A DNA stretch of 64,000 bases, from contig JAFQDE010000010.1 in the NCBI GenBank assembly GCA_017416155.1, positions 1,476 through 65,475 of the forward strand, in the 5' to 3' direction. The notes below the pieces were generated by a model. That model was not told the origin of the DNA and ran no database searches. It saw nothing but the letters and a program-made list of their open reading frames with translations. How positions within the stretch are numbered: position 1 is the first letter of the stretch; every line of letters starts with the position of its first letter. The DNA comes from Tyzzerella sp. Lineage in GTDB: Bacteria > Bacillota > Clostridia > Lachnospirales > Lachnospiraceae. Made by a program: the position numbers and the translations under genes. Positions 42,064-55,109 of this stretch are shown here, one piece after another.

Positions 42064-43200
42064 TTATTTTTCTAACAATAACTTCGCTCTTGCATGTATC
42101 TGACTTTCAATCAATTTTAACCGATTCTCAGGCAAGTTATAACGTGGATGTTTTCGGAATTTAAAATCTAGTAATTGTCTAAGTCCTTCTCTATGTTCTG
42201 ATGTGAGAACTTTTTTTGCTGTTCCTATAAAATCATCATAAACACATGGCAGTAATGTTTCTGCGTAATTTGCAAAAGACTTTTCTGAATCTAAATCATC
42301 GCCTGCTGCATAATTAAACAGAGAATTACCATGGTCAAACAATGGTGCCGGAGCCGCAATCTTGTTCGTTTTATTATCAACTAAGACCCCGAAATTCCCA
42401 AAATGTCTATCCGTGTTGCAGATAATAGCATCGAACACAAACATATCATGTAATGCCTTTACATACTCTTTTCCAAGTTTTTCATAATACTCAGCTACTG
42501 CCTGCATTCCACCTGTTCTTACAATTCTACCAATCGGCAAATAAGAGTAGTCCTTGCTTGTAAAAAGTTCACAGGTAGAACACAGTAATCCTTCCCATTT
42601 GCTAAGACTATAATCAATCGCATTTATTCCAAGTACTCGTGCCACCTGTACAGCATAATACTCGGAATAAGGCTCATTTCCAGTATTACATGCTCCACTT
42701 GTACCACCTTTATATAACTTAATTGTACTCTCACTTCTTCTCCAACACTTTGGAAGCATACCATTTGTCGTAAACTCCGGACATGAAGCAAGTGATGTGC
42801 GCACACTACTGCCGTAACCAGTAAAGGCAATGAGTGCAAGTACTTTACTAAAACGATTCTCATAAAGATTATATTTCTCGAAGGTACCTTCAAATCCTTC
42901 TTCTACTACCCAATAGCAATCATTGAGCGATAGCCCTTTGGAAACACGAATAATATTCATTGGACGATTTAAGTTCAACCCACATTTGCTCAAAAAATTG
43001 TGAACATAAGCACGATTCTTTGGAATCGTTCTATGCTTGAGCCATTTTGCAATTCCCTCATTTGAAAATTCCAAATCAAGCGGGAGAAGATGCTTCTTGT
43101 CTTCATCATACCACAAAATATTAATTTCAGGAGTATTGCTATCTTCCGTAGCCGAGAAACGAACTAACGGTGTATTAAAATGTCTCAATTCGTAATTCAT
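42064..43200 (-). CDS. HipA-like Ser/Thr kinase domain protein
   Basis: TTNGMLPKCW, LYKG, EPYSE, NTDRHFGNFG, APLFDHG. Confidence 0.8.
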   Translation of the reverse strand: MNYELRHFNTPLVRFSATEDSNTPEINILWYDEDKKHLLPLDLEFSNEGIAKWLKHRTIPKNRAYVHNFLSKCGLNLNRPMNIIRVSKGLSLNDCYWVVEEGFEGTFEKYNLYENRFSKVLALIAFTGYGSSVRTSLASCPEFTTNGMLPKCWRRSESTIKLYKGGTSGACNTGNEPYSEYYAVQVARVLGINAIDYSLSKWEGLLCSTCELFTSKDYSYLPIGRIVRTGGMQAVAEYYEKLGKEYVKALHDMFVFDAIICNTDRHFGNFGVLVDNKTNKIAAPAPLFDHGNSLFNYAAGDDLDSEKSFANYAETLLPCVYDDFIGTAKKVLTSEHREGLRQLLDFKFRKHPRYNLPENRLKLIESQIHARAKLLLEK

Positions 43201-44789: not shown

Positions 44790-45437
44790 CTACTCTGTCT
44801 CTGTTTTCTCTATTTCTCTTCGTTTCCTTACTATCAAAATAATTACTACCAGTGCTGCTGAAGTACCAACCCCGGCAATCCAAAGCCACCCTTTTGATGC
44901 ATCACCTGTCTGGGTGCTTCCATCGTCAATCTCTTCCACCAAGAACTCCCAATCGAGATATCCAACTAATTTCTTATAGTTATTGTCAAGGCTTGTCGGC
45001 ACCTGAAGCCCAACCATAAGTTCTGCCTCAGCACCTGCGGCAAGCACGCCGATTTGTCTCCATTCTTTCAATTGTGCTGTCTGGTCTGCCGGTGCCTCAA
45101 AAAGCGGTGTATCGGTTACTTTCTCCACATAAAGATTCAGTTTTGATAAGAAATCTTTGGAATCCTCATGTGCGCCAAGCGCCCGCATAGATATCTTCAC
45201 ATTCTTTTTCGCGTTGTTTTTTACAACAATCTTCTGTGTCAAAGTATCCCCCGGCATCACATCCTTGAATTCCGGAAATAAATCCGTCAAAGAATGCTCA
45301 CTGCCCGGTGTAAAAATGAATTGTCCCGCATTTCCACTATATATTACATTTCCTTCTGCCGCTGTACCTGTAATAGTTGACATTGTCATTGTGAGCAACA
45401 TTACTAATACAAGTACTCCTCTAGTCATCCGCTTCAT
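44790..45437 (-). CDS. Cell-surface-anchored protein (Sec signal; QTGD + TM + basic tail)
   Basis: DVMPGDTLTQKIVVKN TasA-like strand; STQTGDASK-hydrophobic-RKRR. Confidence 0.7.
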   Translation of the reverse strand: MKRMTRGVLVLVMLLTMTMSTITGTAAEGNVIYSGNAGQFIFTPGSEHSLTDLFPEFKDVMPGDTLTQKIVVKNNAKKNVKISMRALGAHEDSKDFLSKLNLYVEKVTDTPLFEAPADQTAQLKEWRQIGVLAAGAEAELMVGLQVPTSLDNNYKKLVGYLDWEFLVEEIDDGSTQTGDASKGWLWIAGVGTSAALVVIILIVRKRREIEKTETE

Positions 45438-46005
45438 CCTGCACCTCCTCTGGCCATCCGAATGCGGTAAATGTATCCGTGCCCTCGATAGGATTATGCT
45501 CACTCTGTACGGCATGAGCGATAATAGACAACTCTAACGTCTTTCCAAGGTAACTATTATCCACCTTGCTTCCCACAATCTCAACCTTCGAGAATACATC
45601 CGGTGTTGTCTGATATGGCTCAACAATACCGGTGTAATAGTACCATCCTTCATGGTATTTCCAATTCGTTTCATCAATATTCAGTTTGAAACAATCCTCC
45701 GCAGAAAGTTCCTGTGAATCCACTCCGTAGACAATCTTCACACGCAAATAAAACGGATGTGTGCAAATGTTCTCTACACTCACCTTCTTGCTCACAATAT
45801 CACCCGGAATAATGTAGACTCCTTCCTTCGGAAACTCCGTTCCCTGGTCTGTTGTCTCGTGAACCACAAACTGAATATCACCGGAGGTCACAACATTGGT
45901 AGCTTTTCCGACTGTGGAGTAATACGCTTGTGTACTTTGGGTGATAAATGTAAATGCAATGGCAATATATGCTATGGTAATAAATTTTAGTCTAAGCTTT
46001 CCCAT
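45421..46005 (-). CDS. SipW-dependent TasA-like subunit
   Basis: TQA|YYSTVGKATNVVTSG; IIPGDIVSK; GWYYY; AHAVQ. Confidence 0.8.
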   Translation of the reverse strand: MGKLRLKFITIAYIAIAFTFITQSTQAYYSTVGKATNVVTSGDIQFVVHETTDQGTEFPKEGVYIIPGDIVSKKVSVENICTHPFYLRVKIVYGVDSQELSAEDCFKLNIDETNWKYHEGWYYYTGIVEPYQTTPDVFSKVEIVGSKVDNSYLGKTLELSIIAHAVQSEHNPIEGTDTFTAFGWPEEVQDEADD

Positions 46006-46103: not shown

Positions 46104-49100
46104 TTATTCAAAATATTTACCGTAACGTTCAATCATTGCAATCAACTCTTCTACTGTCAGATTTCCTTTTCCAATAGAAACTTTCAGGTATTGTCCTCCT
46201 GCAGTATCAAACATTTTTCTTGATAATTCAGCATATTGTGAAAGTTCTTCATATGTAAACAATCCATATGTTTCGATATCTCTAGCCATCGCTTCGTAAT
46301 CGTAAGTCATCGTTTCTGCCTCTACATCAAAGATATTAAACAATCCACCTACTCCACCCGGCATTGAAAGCATACCATTTACGAAGTAGCAAAGGTGTCC
46401 GGCTGTAACTGGACTCCATGCAGTTGTTGCTTGGTCTTCAAGAATAACATCCACTAACTTAACCTTTTCAAGAACATCGCCATTTTGTTTTGCAAATGTA
46501 TGTCCGATATATTGGTCTGCATTTCTGTCAAGGTATACATATTTATTCAAATCGTAATCCCAGAAACCATGTTCTGAAATAACTTTTACTTCTGTACCAT
46601 CAGAGAAGTAGAGTTTGATTACTTCATAAGTTGCTTCAGGATCATTGTCTACAAACATAATCGGTGCAGAATCCAATGAACCAGTTTCCATGTTCCATAC
46701 TAATAATTGTTCTGTGCCAGTCAGAGAATCGACACGTACTTGTGAACCGTCAGCAAGCGTGATGAGGGTATCTGGGGTAATACAATTTTTCAGTTGTTCT
46801 AAAGTACCCGAACAAAAAGCACTATACTTATATTCTTTATCTTTATTTTCTTCCACAGACCATGTATGACTGAATTTCAATTCATTTCCATTATTGTTGT
46901 CCTTAAAATAATAAGTTATAGCAATAGTTCTTGCTGAATTACCAGTATTAACCAATCCATTACTAGACGAGGCCACAAAGTATAATTTACCGTCACAAAC
47001 AACAGGCATTGCATAAACACTATTGCCAGAATGAACCGCCGTTTCATTCTTGATAGTTAATGTGAAATCATCATTATCATGAGTATAAGTCCAATAATTA
47101 TTGGTGCCATTTTGCTGCCCCTCCTCTGTAGGAGTATAATCAGACAGCGTAATCGTCTTATACTGTTGCTCGGCTACGCTCCAATATTTAATCTGAACAC
47201 CCTCCAACACAGGAGCTGCACCATGCCATGTTCCACCATAGCTGGATGCTACGCACAAACCCGCCTCATAGTTAGATGCAACCAAAGAAGGGCTTTCTTT
47301 ACTCGTCTCTGTACCAGTCACTTTATAGTGAACGATATATTCCTTATCGTTCATCGTTGCGGTCAATTTATAAGTAGTACCACCAGCCACAACCGCTACA
47401 GGAGAAGCAGGCTTAGCATTGCCGTCCACCTTGAAGTCGGTCATATTCACACCGTTTACAGATATTATCAACTTGCTGAAATCCAGAGCGTAACTATTAA
47501 GTCTGTCCAAATCCACATTCAACTCATAAATCCAACCTTCCGTACCATAAGATTTGCCCGTGGTCAATCCATCAGAAGTGTCGGAATAGTTCACCGTAAT
47601 AATGTCAGACTGCGTACTAGGAGCATATTCTCCAACTTCTTTGGTGGAGGTGTCTGTACCGTTGGTATTCTTGTAGGAATACACACAGGTGGTCAAAAGA
47701 GAATATTGAACCTCAGCCTTCCCATATGGTACAGTATCTTTGTTGGTACGATTATCTGTAACAGTTGTCGCATTAACATTGTACTCTCCATCAGCAGGCA
47801 TATAAGCAATACCCAGATTCAATGATTCATTTGTCCCATCATCATTGATATCATGGAGATATTCGGTCTTCTTCATTACCTCATCAATAATGGCCTGCCC
47901 CTCACTAGGTACATACTGTTTGTCGCCCTCGTCAACCCATGCATTTTGAACCAGAGTACCCTCCAGGGTAATCGGGGCGGCCTCGCCACCAACAGAACAC
48001 ATTACAAGAACGCTAAAGCCCATCAATTTCTTGCTGTTGTCATATGTCGAAGCGGTCGGTTTCTGCACCAATATTACGTCACGCAAGATCAAACTGTTCG
48101 CTGCGCCCACCAAAACAGAAGCAACTGCGCCGCCTTCAATACGGGAGTTGTCAATAACGCAGTTGCCACCAGACACATTTACCGCAGCACGCGCACCTGA
48201 AATTCTCGAGTTAAGAATCTGACTATTCCCAGATGCCATTACACCACTCTTTGCGTTATAGTAGCGTGTTTTACCACTTGTATCTGTTTCAGAACGATTG
48301 TCTGAACTTGTTAAATTACTTTTATACAAAGCTGCATAGTCAAAATTCGGACATACAATCTGCACATTATCTAATGTACCATTGTTCAGTATTAAAAACG
48401 CATATCCCATATCTGAAGCCGTCGAATCACTTCCACAAGTCATTGTGAAACCATTTCCATACAGTGCGTAACCATTGGAAACAGTTAGAGAACTAAATCC
48501 ACAGTCATTCAACAAAACAACATTATTCGCCGTTGCGCTAGTAGCAGTAGTTGCATTCACAGCATCCACAACCTCAACAGTTAGTTTAGTAGGCTTGCAG
48601 TAGTTGTAGTCTTGGATGGTAATAGTCACAACACCGGTGCCTTCAAATTTGATCTTACCGTCTTCCCATTTGTCGGTCGTACTCTGCGTAAATGTGCCAG
48701 ATACATTCATATTTTCATTAAGTTTTTCAATTGCAACCCAAACACCTGAAATAGAAATATCTTCAGATATTGTTTCAAAAAGAGAACCTATTGCAATCGA
48801 GTTTCCATTACCCACACGATAAAGGAAATTGCCGGTAAATTTCTTCTTAAACTTCTCTTCGGAATAACCCTCACGTTCAAGAATTTTAATATCCAAGTCA
48901 GGGTAGAGAAGTTTACCTGTACTATCTGTAGTCTGATTAAGGTTTGCACCTTCCTCCTCGGAAATCGGAATATGCTTCACGCCCCAGCCATAACCTGTGA
49001 ACAACTGATTGAAAGGCAGGTAAATATGTTCGTGATCTTCCTTGTGGTCATTTATCTGACCATCTCCATTAACATCAAAGTCCTCAATTTCGGACATATC

Positions 49101-51410
49101 ATGTGTCCAACGAGTACCATTTACAAAGTGATAGCAAGTTGCATTTTCTGTCTTATATCCTTCTCCGTTGAGTACAACATAATTGTATTTTCCTTCAGTA
49201 GGAATGGCTTGTACAGTGCCGTCAGTTGTTGTATAGGTCATATTATCATCATCAACAGCAACAACCTGTGTCAAACGACTGAACTGATAGTCGTGAGTAT
49301 AGGAAGCAATGCTATTATCAACCAATTCGCAATAATAGTAATCGTTCCATTCGTCAAAACGAACGGTACAGGCTTTTGCCGTAATCATAGTCAAATCTGG
49401 AACGGTATATCCGTCAGCATCCTCGGTCATATTGTAGTTCGTTCCAATCATCATACCTGCATAACGATACCAATAATACTGATAGTTTCCACATACATCA
49501 TTGTAAACATCTATCTTTGCAGCAACATGGCAATTATCAAAGTTCACCTCACCTTTACCACGGAACATACCCATAATACCGCCACAGGCAACATCCCAAG
49601 AACCCCAAAGTGCAGAGATCGTATTGGTATTGTCAACAGTGATGTTAGTGAAACTGAGAGTCTTTCCTTCGTCCCCGTTAGAATTACCACCAACTCCTAC
49701 GATACCACCATTGCCGGTATTGTAAACACGAGGATTACAGTGAGTAATCGCAATATTTTTAAAATTAGAATCAACTGCATAAGCAGCGATAACACCCGTA
49801 GGCGTAAATTCTCCATCTGACTCAAAGTGATCAACAGTTAAGTTTTCAATAGTTCCACCGTTTACATAGCCGAACAGTCCCATTGCATCCTTATAGTAGT
49901 TCGGTGTTCCGCTATATCCGCTATTGTAATCACCAAACATTTCCCATGTATTCTGATAGAAATTAGAGATGGTATGACCGTTACCATTAAAGGTTCCACT
50001 AAAGGAACTAACATTACTAACTACATCCTCTACGCCCACGGCATTGTTTCGATCATATTTGTCTTGGTTATTGTAATAGCCGATAGGATAAAAAATGTTG
50101 CCATTCAGGTTAATATCAGCAATCAGTTTAATTGTTTTTCCGGCAAAATCATTATCTTTGCCAACCATTTTAGAAAAACTATTCAATTGGTCGCCATTTG
50201 TAATTATCAGCTCAGTAGCATCCGCATCGTACCAAGTATCATCAGTACCTCCCTGCCAAGCATTTCCTGTATCAGCAACCAATGCAACCTCAGAAAATGT
50301 TGCCATTGCCACACTGACCGCCCCTGTATCAGAGTCATAAGTAAATTGGTTATGTGCAATAAGAGCGTCTTTGTCGGCTACCAAATTCATTTCTTGGTTA
50401 ACGCCATCCTCCACGTGAATCAAGCGATAGTTACCCATGTTCAGATACTGCGGTAAAACTTCGCCGAGATCTACAATGATTGGCACATTATTAGTGTCTG
50501 CAACTCCTTCAATATGCACATCCATAGGAATGAGAATTTCATCATTTACAACGTCAATATCACTGGTTGTGTTCTCGAGAGGCGTTACAGTAAGAGTTAA
50601 CTCGGTAATACCATTCTGCAAAACAACTCCCTCTGGAACAAAAGCAGAAACTTCTCCACCATTTAAAGTAACACCGCCTGCAGGAACCTTGCCTTCAACT
50701 GGTGTAACTGGTGCAGAAGCAGAGCCTCCTGTTAGTATTGTAGGAAATTTAGCTTCTGCATCATAATCACTGCCAAAAGAATCTTTCTCAAAAGGCGCCT
50801 GAGTTGCCAGTGCTGTAATAGTGAACTGACCTGCATCCTCGTTTTGATAGTCATTACCGGCAGAAGTAAGCATATTCATGGCCATGGTCACGATAACCTC
50901 ACCTGACGGATGCAGAGGGCTGGATTGTTCTGCTGCCAATAGGGTACCATCTGCAGTAGCACCACCATTTAATACGTTATTAAGTAAACCTATTACCTTT
51001 AGGTTCTTCAAATCTGAGCGTTGTTCTACATTTACACCGCCCTCAGCAAAGTACACGTTAATAACTTCAGCTAGTTTGCCCACACCATTCTGAGGCGTGA
51101 GAGATAACTTATAGTTAAGAGCAAGTTCACCGGCATTAACCAATTTTATGTACTTAACATCAGTGTATCCCGGCTCCCAATTATCATAGTTGAATATAGT
51201 ATTATGTCCGTCTTCTTCAACATTGCGCCATTCGCCACTATTAAGGTCGTCCGTCCAATACATTTCTAAATCCAAGTTTCCAGCTGTAATAATATTATTA
51301 CTACTAGAGATTTTGTCGCTGAACCACGCAAATGTCGTGCCAATGAGCATAGAAATGCACAACAGCAAGGCTATTACACTATGGAGCAACGAATTTTTAG
51401 TCTTCTTCAT
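46104..51410 (-). CDS. Large SipW-dependent adhesin: TasA-like N-domain, GLUG/beta-helix regions, C-terminal Hint domain plus tail
   Basis: GTTFA|WFSD, WEPGYT; FSGTFNGNGHTISN; CITPDTLITLADG..SEHGF..YFVNGMLSM. Confidence 0.85.
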   Translation of the reverse strand: MKKTKNSLLHSVIALLLCISMLIGTTFAWFSDKISSSNNIITAGNLDLEMYWTDDLNSGEWRNVEEDGHNTIFNYDNWEPGYTDVKYIKLVNAGELALNYKLSLTPQNGVGKLAEVINVYFAEGGVNVEQRSDLKNLKVIGLLNNVLNGGATADGTLLAAEQSSPLHPSGEVIVTMAMNMLTSAGNDYQNEDAGQFTITALATQAPFEKDSFGSDYDAEAKFPTILTGGSASAPVTPVEGKVPAGGVTLNGGEVSAFVPEGVVLQNGITELTLTVTPLENTTSDIDVVNDEILIPMDVHIEGVADTNNVPIIVDLGEVLPQYLNMGNYRLIHVEDGVNQEMNLVADKDALIAHNQFTYDSDTGAVSVAMATFSEVALVADTGNAWQGGTDDTWYDADATELIITNGDQLNSFSKMVGKDNDFAGKTIKLIADINLNGNIFYPIGYYNNQDKYDRNNAVGVEDVVSNVSSFSGTFNGNGHTISNFYQNTWEMFGDYNSGYSGTPNYYKDAMGLFGYVNGGTIENLTVDHFESDGEFTPTGVIAAYAVDSNFKNIAITHCNPRVYNTGNGGIVGVGGNSNGDEGKTLSFTNITVDNTNTISALWGSWDVACGGIMGMFRGKGEVNFDNCHVAAKIDVYNDVCGNYQYYWYRYAGMMIGTNYNMTEDADGYTVPDLTMITAKACTVRFDEWNDYYYCELVDNSIASYTHDYQFSRLTQVVAVDDDNMTYTTTDGTVQAIPTEGKYNYVVLNGEGYKTENATCYHFVNGTRWTHDMSEIEDFDVNGDGQINDHKEDHEHIYLPFNQLFTGYGWGVKHIPISEEEGANLNQTTDSTGKLLYPDLDIKILEREGYSEEKFKKKFTGNFLYRVGNGNSIAIGSLFETISEDISISGVWVAIEKLNENMNVSGTFTQSTTDKWEDGKIKFEGTGVVTITIQDYNYCKPTKLTVEVVDAVNATTATSATANNVVLLNDCGFSSLTVSNGYALYGNGFTMTCGSDSTASDMGYAFLILNNGTLDNVQIVCPNFDYAALYKSNLTSSDNRSETDTSGKTRYYNAKSGVMASGNSQILNSRISGARAAVNVSGGNCVIDNSRIEGGAVASVLVGAANSLILRDVILVQKPTASTYDNSKKLMGFSVLVMCSVGGEAAPITLEGTLVQNAWVDEGDKQYVPSEGQAIIDEVMKKTEYLHDINDDGTNESLNLGIAYMPADGEYNVNATTVTDNRTNKDTVPYGKAEVQYSLLTTCVYSYKNTNGTDTSTKEVGEYAPSTQSDIITVNYSDTSDGLTTGKSYGTEGWIYELNVDLDRLNSYALDFSKLIISVNGVNMTDFKVDGNAKPASPVAVVAGGTTYKLTATMNDKEYIVHYKVTGTETSKESPSLVASNYEAGLCVASSYGGTWHGAAPVLEGVQIKYWSVAEQQYKTITLSDYTPTEEGQQNGTNNYWTYTHDNDDFTLTIKNETAVHSGNSVYAMPVVCDGKLYFVASSSNGLVNTGNSARTIAITYYFKDNNNGNELKFSHTWSVEENKDKEYKYSAFCSGTLEQLKNCITPDTLITLADGSQVRVDSLTGTEQLLVWNMETGSLDSAPIMFVDNDPEATYEVIKLYFSDGTEVKVISEHGFWDYDLNKYVYLDRNADQYIGHTFAKQNGDVLEKVKLVDVILEDQATTAWSPVTAGHLCYFVNGMLSMPGGVGGLFNIFDVEAETMTYDYEAMARDIETYGLFTYEELSQYAELSRKMFDTAGGQYLKVSIGKGNLTVEELIAMIERYGKYFE
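46362..46784 (-). other. Hedgehog/intein (Hint) autoprocessing domain, residues C1543-M1683
   Basis: Block A CITPDTLITLADG, MFVD(46), H72, terminal WSPVT..YFVNGMLSM. Confidence 0.85.
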
Positions 51411-54368: not shown

Positions 54369-55085
54369 CTATTTTTGTAATTCTTTGTTAAAAGCATTTA
54401 CCTTGATATAACAATCCTCACACAACTGCCCCACGCCATTGATATAATGCTTCCTTGCATCCGCCGGCAGATTAGTTAACACTCCAGTATCATTTCCACA
54501 CAGAATACATTTTTCTGTATCTGTCGAAACCTTTTCATATGATTCCTGCCGGGCTGTTTTCTGCTCATCTACAACTTCATCCTCTGCCTTCTTCTTTTTA
54601 AAGAAATCCGGTAAGAACACAATTAGAATAAGTACAAATCCAACTCCTACTGTGATATACATTCCCGGTGGATTCTGAATGAAGTCAGACACATATCCCA
54701 ATAAAGGAATGCTAAACTTCGGCACTCCGATAACATTATTAAAATGCACCGGCGAAGCATCCGCTGTATCATTTGCATCTCCTTTGGTATAGAAGTGTTG
54801 ATTTTCTTCATCCACCTCCACAACTCTATGTGTGGCCACTACCAGATTCTCGTTTAATACAAATGTAATCGGTGTTCCCACCTCTACCTCATAAGGATTC
54901 ACATCCTTTACATAGATGAGGTCTCCCACACTGTAGGTCGGTTCCATACTGCCGGATATAACATTGAACACCTGATACCCCAGTAATCTTGAGCCCATTA
55001 GGAACACGGCACATAGCACAAAAAGCCCTACTAAAAATGTAGAGCTGACATTCCATATTTTCTTTAACAAATCATTGCGTTTCAT
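54369..55085 (-). CDS. sipW: Signal peptidase I, SipW type, with C-terminal CxxC..CxxC extension
   Basis: VISGSMEP, THRV, TKGDAN..D (Ser/His type). Confidence 0.9.
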   Translation of the reverse strand: MKRNDLLKKIWNVSSTFLVGLFVLCAVFLMGSRLLGYQVFNVISGSMEPTYSVGDLIYVKDVNPYEVEVGTPITFVLNENLVVATHRVVEVDEENQHFYTKGDANDTADASPVHFNNVIGVPKFSIPLLGYVSDFIQNPPGMYITVGVGFVLILIVFLPDFFKKKKAEDEVVDEQKTARQESYEKVSTDTEKCILCGNDTGVLTNLPADARKHYINGVGQLCEDCYIKVNAFNKELQK

Positions 55086-55109
55086 CTTAGCACCTCCCCA
55101 TATCAAGCC

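Follow-up and report, generated by a model that had tools for sequence, protein, structure and literature searches.

Introduction

In Hedgehog, the active site of the Hint domain consists of C1, D46, T69, H72 and C143, of which C143 is required, and D46 activates the cholesterol hydroxyl in the transfer step (PMC12054796). The sterol-recognition region (SRR) of the same protein is a helix-loop-helix with amphipathic, membrane-peripheral helices, and Hedgehog lacking the SRR only hydrolyses (PMC7242414). Bacterial intein-like (BIL) domains have not been described with an obligatory tail domain of the kind presented here (PMC2362128), and DdrB of phage P1 has been proposed as a case of a phage head protein whose C-terminal peptidase removes itself (PMC5512222). 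The present work concerns a Hint domain at the end of a secreted fibre protein encoded in a 64,000-nucleotide stretch of DNA from Tyzzerella sp. (Lachnospiraceae; GenBank assembly GCA_017416155.1, contig JAFQDE010000010.1, positions 1,476 to 65,475), the whole of which is referred to as the window. An earlier reading of its letters, here called the original prediction, had proposed that the protein cleaves itself between N1542 and C1543 and may, in the manner of Hedgehog, ligate its C-terminus to an external nucleophile.

The last 226 residues of the fibre protein are a genuine Hint domain followed by an unannotated acidic helical domain, and the two together form a mobile unit joined to otherwise unrelated, usually secreted proteins. 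In the literature on BIL-A/B, Vint, PT-HINT and the proteobacterial C-terminal Hint group (PMC2362128), no description of such a Hint-plus-tail cassette was found.

The Hint domain and its catalytic residues

The start of the Hint domain coincides with C1543 (codon 46782-46784) and, numbered from this cysteine as is done throughout, the domain contains D46 (D1588, 46647-46649) within IMFVDND, H72 (H1614, 46569-46571) within VISEH and a second cysteine, C132 (C1674). Its end reads WSPVT..HLCYFVNGMLSM, followed by PGG (the MLSM-PGG junction), with S140, M141 and P142 conserved, and the translation shows at this C-terminal end neither His-Asn nor a Cys, Ser or Thr at +1, so that splicing is excluded. 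The start at C1543, D46, H72, the end of the domain and the 85-residue tail are exactly as originally predicted. In an alignment of 121 homologues, conservation switches on at C1543 itself, which is 100% conserved and preceded at -1 by G, S or N only, and across the homologue alignments together the residue at -1 is small (S, G, N, E or T). C1, D46, E71, H72, S124, T127 and N150 are each present in 261 of 261 close homologues, while C1 and H72 are also found in 16/16 distant genome copies each and are kept in phage and archaeal copies.

The threonine of the block-B TxxH motif, at position 69, is replaced by Ile in the fibre protein, as had been noted before, and the 261 homologues carry I (252), V (8) or L (1) and never Thr, with I, V or A in the distant copies. 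The suggestion that S70 substitutes for it did not hold up, because position 70 is variable (S, Y, T, G or D), and its neighbour E71 is invariant. The loss in every member of this residue, which assists the acyl shift in inteins and Hedgehog, speaks for a Hint that is a structural or binding module, does not cleave and leaves the precursor intact. Such a role is nonetheless very improbable, as the invariance of C1 and H72 in all clades and the edge of conservation at C1 are difficult to account for if the domain is not catalytic.

A single-sequence AlphaFold2 prediction was unusable, with a predicted local distance difference test (pLDDT) of 35, and the alignment-based model was used instead. 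This model, built from a 35-sequence alignment, reached a mean pLDDT of 87.7 and a pTM of 0.81 and has a beta-rich Hint core, after which the tail forms five to six helices. Foldseek returned only Hint domains (E 2e-8, TM by target ~0.8), and in a VIA-align comparison with the PDB all 32 representatives with a Z of at least 2 were Hint domains, the best at Z ~15, namely the Npu DnaB intein (15.4), Tetrahymena BIL2 (15.3), the Clostridium thermocellum BIL domain (14.9) and the Drosophila Hedgehog domain HhC, 1AT0 (14.8; root-mean-square deviation 2.1 A over 138 residues). As these rows are tied, the fold confirms a Hint domain without singling out Hedgehog; the suggested superposition on HhC was thus obtained, though it is no better than that on inteins and BIL domains. 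Among the hallmarks of the Hint superfamily, the beta-fold, C1 and the block-B His are present and the block-B Thr is absent.

At the level of families, the Hedgehog Hint family PF01079 matches the fibre protein with an E of 5e-5 and 23.4 bits, under its gathering score of 29.7, and is the top Pfam family for 35/35 members of our narrow alignment (A1), for which Intein_splicing reached at best an E of 0.02 and neither PT-HINT (PF07591) nor Hint_2 (PF13403) gave a match. When a profile of the whole cassette was compared with PDB sequences, 1AT0 appeared only at E 0.41, outranked by designed repeat proteins, with an alignment that is ungapped from C1 through D46 (ilfvDsd vs ILFMDRN) to H72. Residues 258..402 of 1AT0 superpose on residues 9..152 of the model, and this places Hedgehog C143 on M141/P142. 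C132, found in 256/261 members of its own clade and replaced by Asn in 14/16 distant copies, was considered as a counterpart of C143 and rejected, since it lies eleven residues earlier and is lost in other clades. The proposed likeness of WSPVT to the YAPLT motif of Hedgehog could not be demonstrated by sequence search, as a profile of relative residues 88-150 gave only chance matches to PDB sequences (glycerol kinase, uS19).

These comparisons bear directly on the main rival to simple release, namely a Hedgehog-like transfer in which a specific nucleophile other than water, which the tail would position and D46 activate, would attack the C1543 thioester, so that the C-terminus of the fibre becomes covalently attached. 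Candidate acceptors are small molecules, through a hydroxyl or an amine, glycans or components of the wall, and other proteins, through a lysine, as in the BUBL/BIL system of Tetrahymena. The case for this transfer includes an Asp at exactly the Hedgehog position in every close homologue, ungapped on its flanks against 1AT0, the activating part that D46 plays in Hedgehog (PMC12054796), and the uniform ranking of PF01079. On the other hand, T69 and the C143 position of Hedgehog are unmatched, PF01079 stays under its cut-off and the fold does not favour HhC over inteins. On all the evidence, including that given in the following sections, such a transfer appears doubtful: a Hint with C1, D46, H72 and PF01079 as its best family is what stands of the original proposal of ligation, while counterparts of T69 and C143 and a discriminating fold do not, and the acidity of the tail weakens it.

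A clade-specific residue at positions 46 and 48

The conservation of D46 had been named beforehand as a test of the proposal, and its outcome depends on the distance at which it is read. All close homologues have D46, as stated above, but among 16 distant genome copies (E 1e-38 to 1e-54), all of which keep C1, H72 and the tail, D46 is found in 4/16 and a His at position 48 in 12/16; in the phage copies, position 48 is Asp and D46 is absent. In the tree, a D46 clade including the fibre protein (support 97/96) and a phage clade (99/99) are separated from a remaining group whose subclades mostly have H48. D46 is therefore confined to one clade, and its sister clades have H48 or D48. Positions 46 and 48 point to the same side of a strand, and what is conserved may be the need for a base here. 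The exchange of D46 for H48 or D48, if it is indeed a swap of a general base, provides natural variants with which the chemistry may be probed.

The acidic tail domain

The tail comprises 85 residues and is modelled as five to six helices with a pLDDT of 70-96. The helical character had been predicted correctly; the amphipathic character had not, as a net charge of -4 to -15 (mean -9.4) and an isoelectric point of ~4.1 make the tail strongly acidic rather than hydrophobic-amphipathic. D169, Y173, G174 and K201 are invariant across all clades, and K206 is present in 15/16 distant copies. It had been asked whether the tail always follows the Hint and whether it belongs to an unrelated known domain: it accompanies every full module that could be aligned (the 261 proteins and the distant genome, phage and archaeal copies), and comparisons with Pfam, NCBIfam and PDB sequences gave no match for it. 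In an ESM Atlas feature search with the tail alone every score was below 0.9, homology to the Hedgehog SRR was not detectable, and the wide PDB structure search gave little coverage of model residues past 153. A complex prediction with two cassette copies scored 0.00 and, having been run without controls, says nothing either way on self-association.

With regard to transfer, an obligatory domain after the Hint with invariant polar residues mirrors the arrangement of Hint and SRR or adduct recognition region (ARR) in Hedgehog, where removal of the SRR leaves only hydrolysis (PMC7242414), although the acidic rather than hydrophobic nature of the tail counts against it. The same two-part layout was met in a Hedgehog/Intein Hint protein of a giant virus, Gaeavirus sp. 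A0A3G5A239 (BFVD), whose model match spans Hint and tail jointly (TM by query 0.74, 232 columns, 20% identity), which also speaks for transfer. This match is a lead only, which suggests that the two-part layout arose before the Clostridia clade and marks a possible link from the tail to the post-Hint regions of eukaryote-associated Hog-like proteins.

A search for the tail alone among short proteins gave 61 matches, mostly on small contigs. Of six that were inspected, five start within or just after the Hint (two at M141) and look like truncated gene calls. The sixth, P0318 (L136:6001-6348), is a protein of 115 residues in which a signal peptide is directly followed by the tail, without a Hint, and its gene is flanked by GH77 and RF-1 genes on a contig of 150 kb. 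It is the only apparently genuine stand-alone tail among those inspected and may be either a deletion remnant or a free tail protein.

A mobile cassette of gut Clostridia

A HMMER search against 1.84 billion representatives retrieved 2,839 clusters (50% identity) at E <= 1e-3, of which 1,325 at E <= 1e-30, and a word-indexed search found more than 2,000 long proteins with the cassette. The large surface proteins of gut Clostridia that end in this 226-residue unit, which is unrecognised by Pfam and NCBIfam, number in the thousands; it is mentioned in none of the source names that were seen for the carriers, and these are annotated only by their N-terminal parts or as hypothetical. The cassette forms the extreme C-terminus in 250/261 retrieved proteins. 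In the others it is followed by a domain of ~87 residues, conserved and of no known family (P0179, P0184, P0189, P0235, P0259, P0230), or by a low-complexity tail rich in His, Asn and Gly and ending in RRRGR (P0186, P0190, P0209, P0219), and in these cases the sequence after the cassette contains neither a membrane nor an LPXTG anchor.

The mobility of the cassette is apparent from 60 sampled proteins, in which its median pairwise identity is 75% and 924/1,770 pairs have no similarity in the 600 residues upstream. The passengers include camelysin-type, InlB B-repeat/Flg_new, SLH, dockerin and type IV pilin-like proteins, and the N-termini of the carriers are of the SipW/TasA or type IV pilin-like type or are plain Sec signals. 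P0164, a protein of 417 residues with the N-terminal KGFTLIEMMVV motif of type IV pilin-like proteins, ends in the cassette, and pilins can thus serve as passengers. A comparison of 10 loci revealed no conserved neighbouring gene.

With respect to its distribution, the cassette was detected in 2/41 close relatives and, in a class-level sample, in 16/399 genomes and 10/219 genera, with 1-3 copies each, while 0/400 further genomes of a wider phylum sample contained it. GTDB species representatives yielded 404 loci, the best 80 of which belong nearly all to gut metagenome-assembled genomes (MAGs) of Faecalimonas, Oscillospiraceae, Christensenellaceae, Lachnospiraceae and Ruminococcus flavefaciens from ruminants, chicken, rabbit and mouse. 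In one genus, g99 (loci L023, L024 and L025; genomes G155, G232 and G128), two to three giant cassette genes stand in tandem, with members of the D46 and H48 clades mixed in one cluster. Most carriers have no other recognised surface anchor. Carrier genomes have four sortases or none, a mixed and uninformative picture, and the two g99 genomes checked (G155 and G232) contain no sortase. Both the absence of another known anchor in most carriers and the multiple cassette genes of g99 without sortase would suit a Hedgehog-like transfer, and yet one to three copies per genome in so few genomes is unlike a general sorting pathway.

The variety of passengers is also relevant to the idea that the cassette is a self-removing assembly aid, which would help its passenger to fold or assemble, or dock it, and then remove itself, comparable to the C-terminal intramolecular chaperones of phage tail spikes. 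This is consistent with its C-terminal location on very long, repeat-rich or beta-helix-like passengers, with its presence on the phage virion-module protein described below and with the lack of a conserved partner gene. It is, however, improbable, since a folding role shared by structurally unrelated passengers is hard to picture and the tail matches no chaperone or oligomerisation family in Pfam or NCBIfam.

Phage and archaeal copies

Outside bacterial genomes, no match was found by tblastn in 50,697 GenBank phage records or in a first IMG/VR scan with alignment A1; with a broader alignment (A2), IMG/VR yielded eight phage contigs (L113-L120) with the full cassette at 40-43% identity. In the six phage contigs examined, the carrier is a protein of 760-822 residues without a signal peptide and with the cassette at its end (e.g. 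L115:4378-6681), and the phage copy has a weak Hint_2 match (E 1e-4). These six share the gene order large terminase, portal and cassette gene, and next comes a giant protein (at least 1,990 residues), which in L115 includes PBECR5, PBECR3 and ART-PolyVal domains. Polyvalent proteins of such a type have been predicted to be packaged and injected (PMC5512222). In this head-operon setting, on a carrier without a signal peptide, folding of the cassette takes place in the cytoplasm.

An archaeal copy, 59% identical and of the D46 clade, is encoded at L107:1-3708 (JBMNHS010000001.1) on a 1.17-Mb contig of a MAG labelled Methanomethylophilaceae. Here the cassette ends an adhesin with Flg_new repeats, and the neighbouring genes encode aIF2-alpha, ribosomal L44e and PAC2, which suggests a transfer of the entire adhesin gene from bacteria to archaea. 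The occurrence of the cassette in a phage operon and on an archaeal chromosome means that a host sterol, a bile compound or a wall polymer, which were among the acceptors originally proposed, cannot be the general acceptor. The absence of any single envelope, sterol or bile acceptor that fits all copies weighs against a Hedgehog-like transfer as a whole, and these contexts, together with the mixed sortase content, argue that no particular envelope component, sterol or bile compound is needed.

The surroundings of the phage copy also raise the question of cargo release, in which cleavage as in PT-HINT systems would free the Hint-plus-tail fragment and the tail would be a small effector or binding module. 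HINT domains are common just before the C-terminal toxins of secreted and phage MuF-type proteins (PMC3482391), the phage cassette gene follows the portal gene and adjoins a toxin-rich polyvalent protein, and P0318 consists of a signal peptide and a tail alone. The polarity is nevertheless reversed in comparison with polymorphic toxins, as the C-terminus is constant (median identity 75%) and the N-terminus variable; the 10 loci compared have no conserved downstream immunity-like gene, PF07591 is not matched, and an acidic helical domain of 85 residues shows no toxin-like features. Cargo release is highly unlikely.

A proposed mechanism of self-cleavage and release

A thioester between C1543 and N1542 is likely to form, and the cassette is likely to separate from its passenger. 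After export and folding, the thiol of C1543 would attack the carbonyl of N1542 in an N-to-S acyl shift, assisted by H72 and probably by the invariant E71; the thioester would then be resolved, and a 25-kDa Hint-plus-tail fragment would leave the fibre protein. In the usual outcome, water or a generic nucleophile would free the mature passenger, with the acid or His at position 46/48 acting as general base, and the tail, as a docking or regulatory domain built into the cassette, would hold or time the precursor rather than bind sterols or lipids. We incline tentatively, and with slightly more doubt than confidence, towards this particular outcome of release by water or a generic nucleophile with a docking or regulatory tail. 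The analysis establishes the fold, the residues, the constant pairing of Hint and tail and the distribution, while the nucleophile, the part played by the tail, the acyl shift and cleavage itself are inferred. Ligation to an acceptor is possible and not indicated. The features counted in favour of release are the confidently modelled Hint fold, the onset of conservation at C1, the invariance of C1 and H72, the lack of a terminal Asn and of a +1 nucleophile, the C-terminal placement with no anchor behind it, the mobility of the cassette among carriers with different N-termini, the lack of a conserved neighbouring gene in 10 loci, the independence from a particular envelope, the soluble acidic tail and the proposed precedent of DdrB.

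Several considerations weigh against release as the usual outcome. It is not obvious why plain hydrolysis would require a general base at 46/48 or an 85-residue domain with invariant D169, Y173 and K201 and a near-invariant K206. Such a base and such conserved tail residues would be a better fit to the selection of an acceptor, and Hedgehog-like transfer gives the better account of these features and of the absent anchors: because most carriers have no other recognised anchor, simple release would leave giant adhesins that have only a Sec signal unattached. In addition, the missing block-B Thr might slow or prevent the acyl shift, and the cassette of the fibre protein may not work in the same way as the phage and archaeal copies.

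If the cassette merely cleaves, it would set the true mature C-terminus of these adhesins and would represent a new self-removing maturation tag, phages included. A more far-reaching reading, and an unlikely one, is that it is the prokaryotic counterpart of Hog, with a thioester formed without helpers and handed to an acceptor chosen by the tail; it would then provide a sortase-independent covalent attachment of surface and virion proteins and be the closest prokaryotic relative of the Hedgehog autoprocessing domain.

The fibre gene and its operon

The features of the fibre gene are collected in Table 1. The protein has the attributes of a SipW-dependent TasA/camelysin-type protein, that is, a SipW-cognate signal peptide (TIGR04088 of NCBIfam, 19.5 bits vs a cut-off of 19), a camelysin-like N-terminus (PF12389 Peptidase_M73 of Pfam, residues 7-104, 30.5 bits vs a cut-off of 22.5) and an S26 signal-peptidase context in its operon, which consists of TasA-like genes around the fibre gene and a weak S26 signal-peptidase match at 54369-55106. 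The operon arrangement is identical in a congener genome (G008, locus L032), and orthologues of the fibre protein have a cassette identity of 84-91%. The passenger (residues 105-1542) gave no significant Pfam match; an ESM Atlas feature search indicated for residues 380-1100 a likeness to the GLUG motif and Peptidase_M26_N of ZmpA/B/C-type proteins (score 0.88), which is a lead and not a finding.

Table 1. Coordinates of the fibre gene and its parts in the window.
Feature	Position	Strand	Basis
Whole gene, 1768-residue secreted fibre protein	46104..51410	(-)	Open reading frame list and translation; stop codon 46104-46106
SipW-type signal peptide and start of TasA/camelysin-like domain, residues 1-104	51099..51410	(-)	PF12389, TIGR04088
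Passenger, residues 105-1542	46785..51098	(-)	Without Pfam family
Predicted scissile bond, N1542 to C1543	46782..46787	(-)	Translation and residue conservation
Hint domain, residues 1543-1683 (C1543-M1683)	46362..46784	(-)	PF01079 E 5e-5; superposition on 1AT0
Acidic helical tail with its Gly-rich junction (PGGVGGLFNIF), residues 1684-1768 (P1684-E1768)	46107..46361	(-)	Model helices

Downstream in the operon, an open reading frame of 241 residues (44790-45515, minus strand) encodes a signal peptide and, C-terminally, a hydrophobic stretch with basic residues after it (…STQTGD…RKRRE); its product may anchor the fibre, either in the membrane or in the sortase manner. A HipA-like kinase gene (42064-43200, minus strand; HipA_C E 7e-7, just under the cut-off) lies directly downstream of the fibre operon.

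Comparison with known Hint systems

With class 1 inteins (Npu DnaB 4O1R, Mtu RecA 2IMZ) the cassette shares the fold (Z 14.8-15.4), Cys1 and the block-B His, but it differs from them in having no C-extein, terminal Asn, +1 nucleophile or insertion into a host protein. PT-HINT proteins (PF07591) likewise have a Hint autopeptidase near the C-terminus of large secreted filamentous and phage head proteins; unlike these, the cassette has no PF07591 match, its C-terminal domain is constant rather than polymorphic and no immunity gene follows. BIL domains (2LWY) and BIL2 of Tetrahymena BUBL (6Y75/6TMM) resemble the cassette as Hint domains of secreted proteins that cleave or ligate and do not splice, with fold Z scores of 14.9-15.3, whereas the cassette lacks a C-terminal His-Asn and protein P0001 has no Hint_2 match.

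The cassette is unlike Hog and Hedgehog (PF01079; 1AT0, 6TD6) in remaining under the PF01079 cut-off, in the replacement of T69 by Ile and of the C143 position by Met/Pro, in the loss of D46 in sister clades, in its acidic and soluble tail, in hosts that make no sterols and in its phage and archaeal copies. It resembles them in being located C-terminally on a secreted protein with a variable N-terminal passenger, with Cys as the first residue, the D46/H72 spacing, no terminal Asn and a helical region of 50-100 residues after the Hint. In conclusion, the cassette belongs to the Hint superfamily and is laid out in a Hog-like manner.

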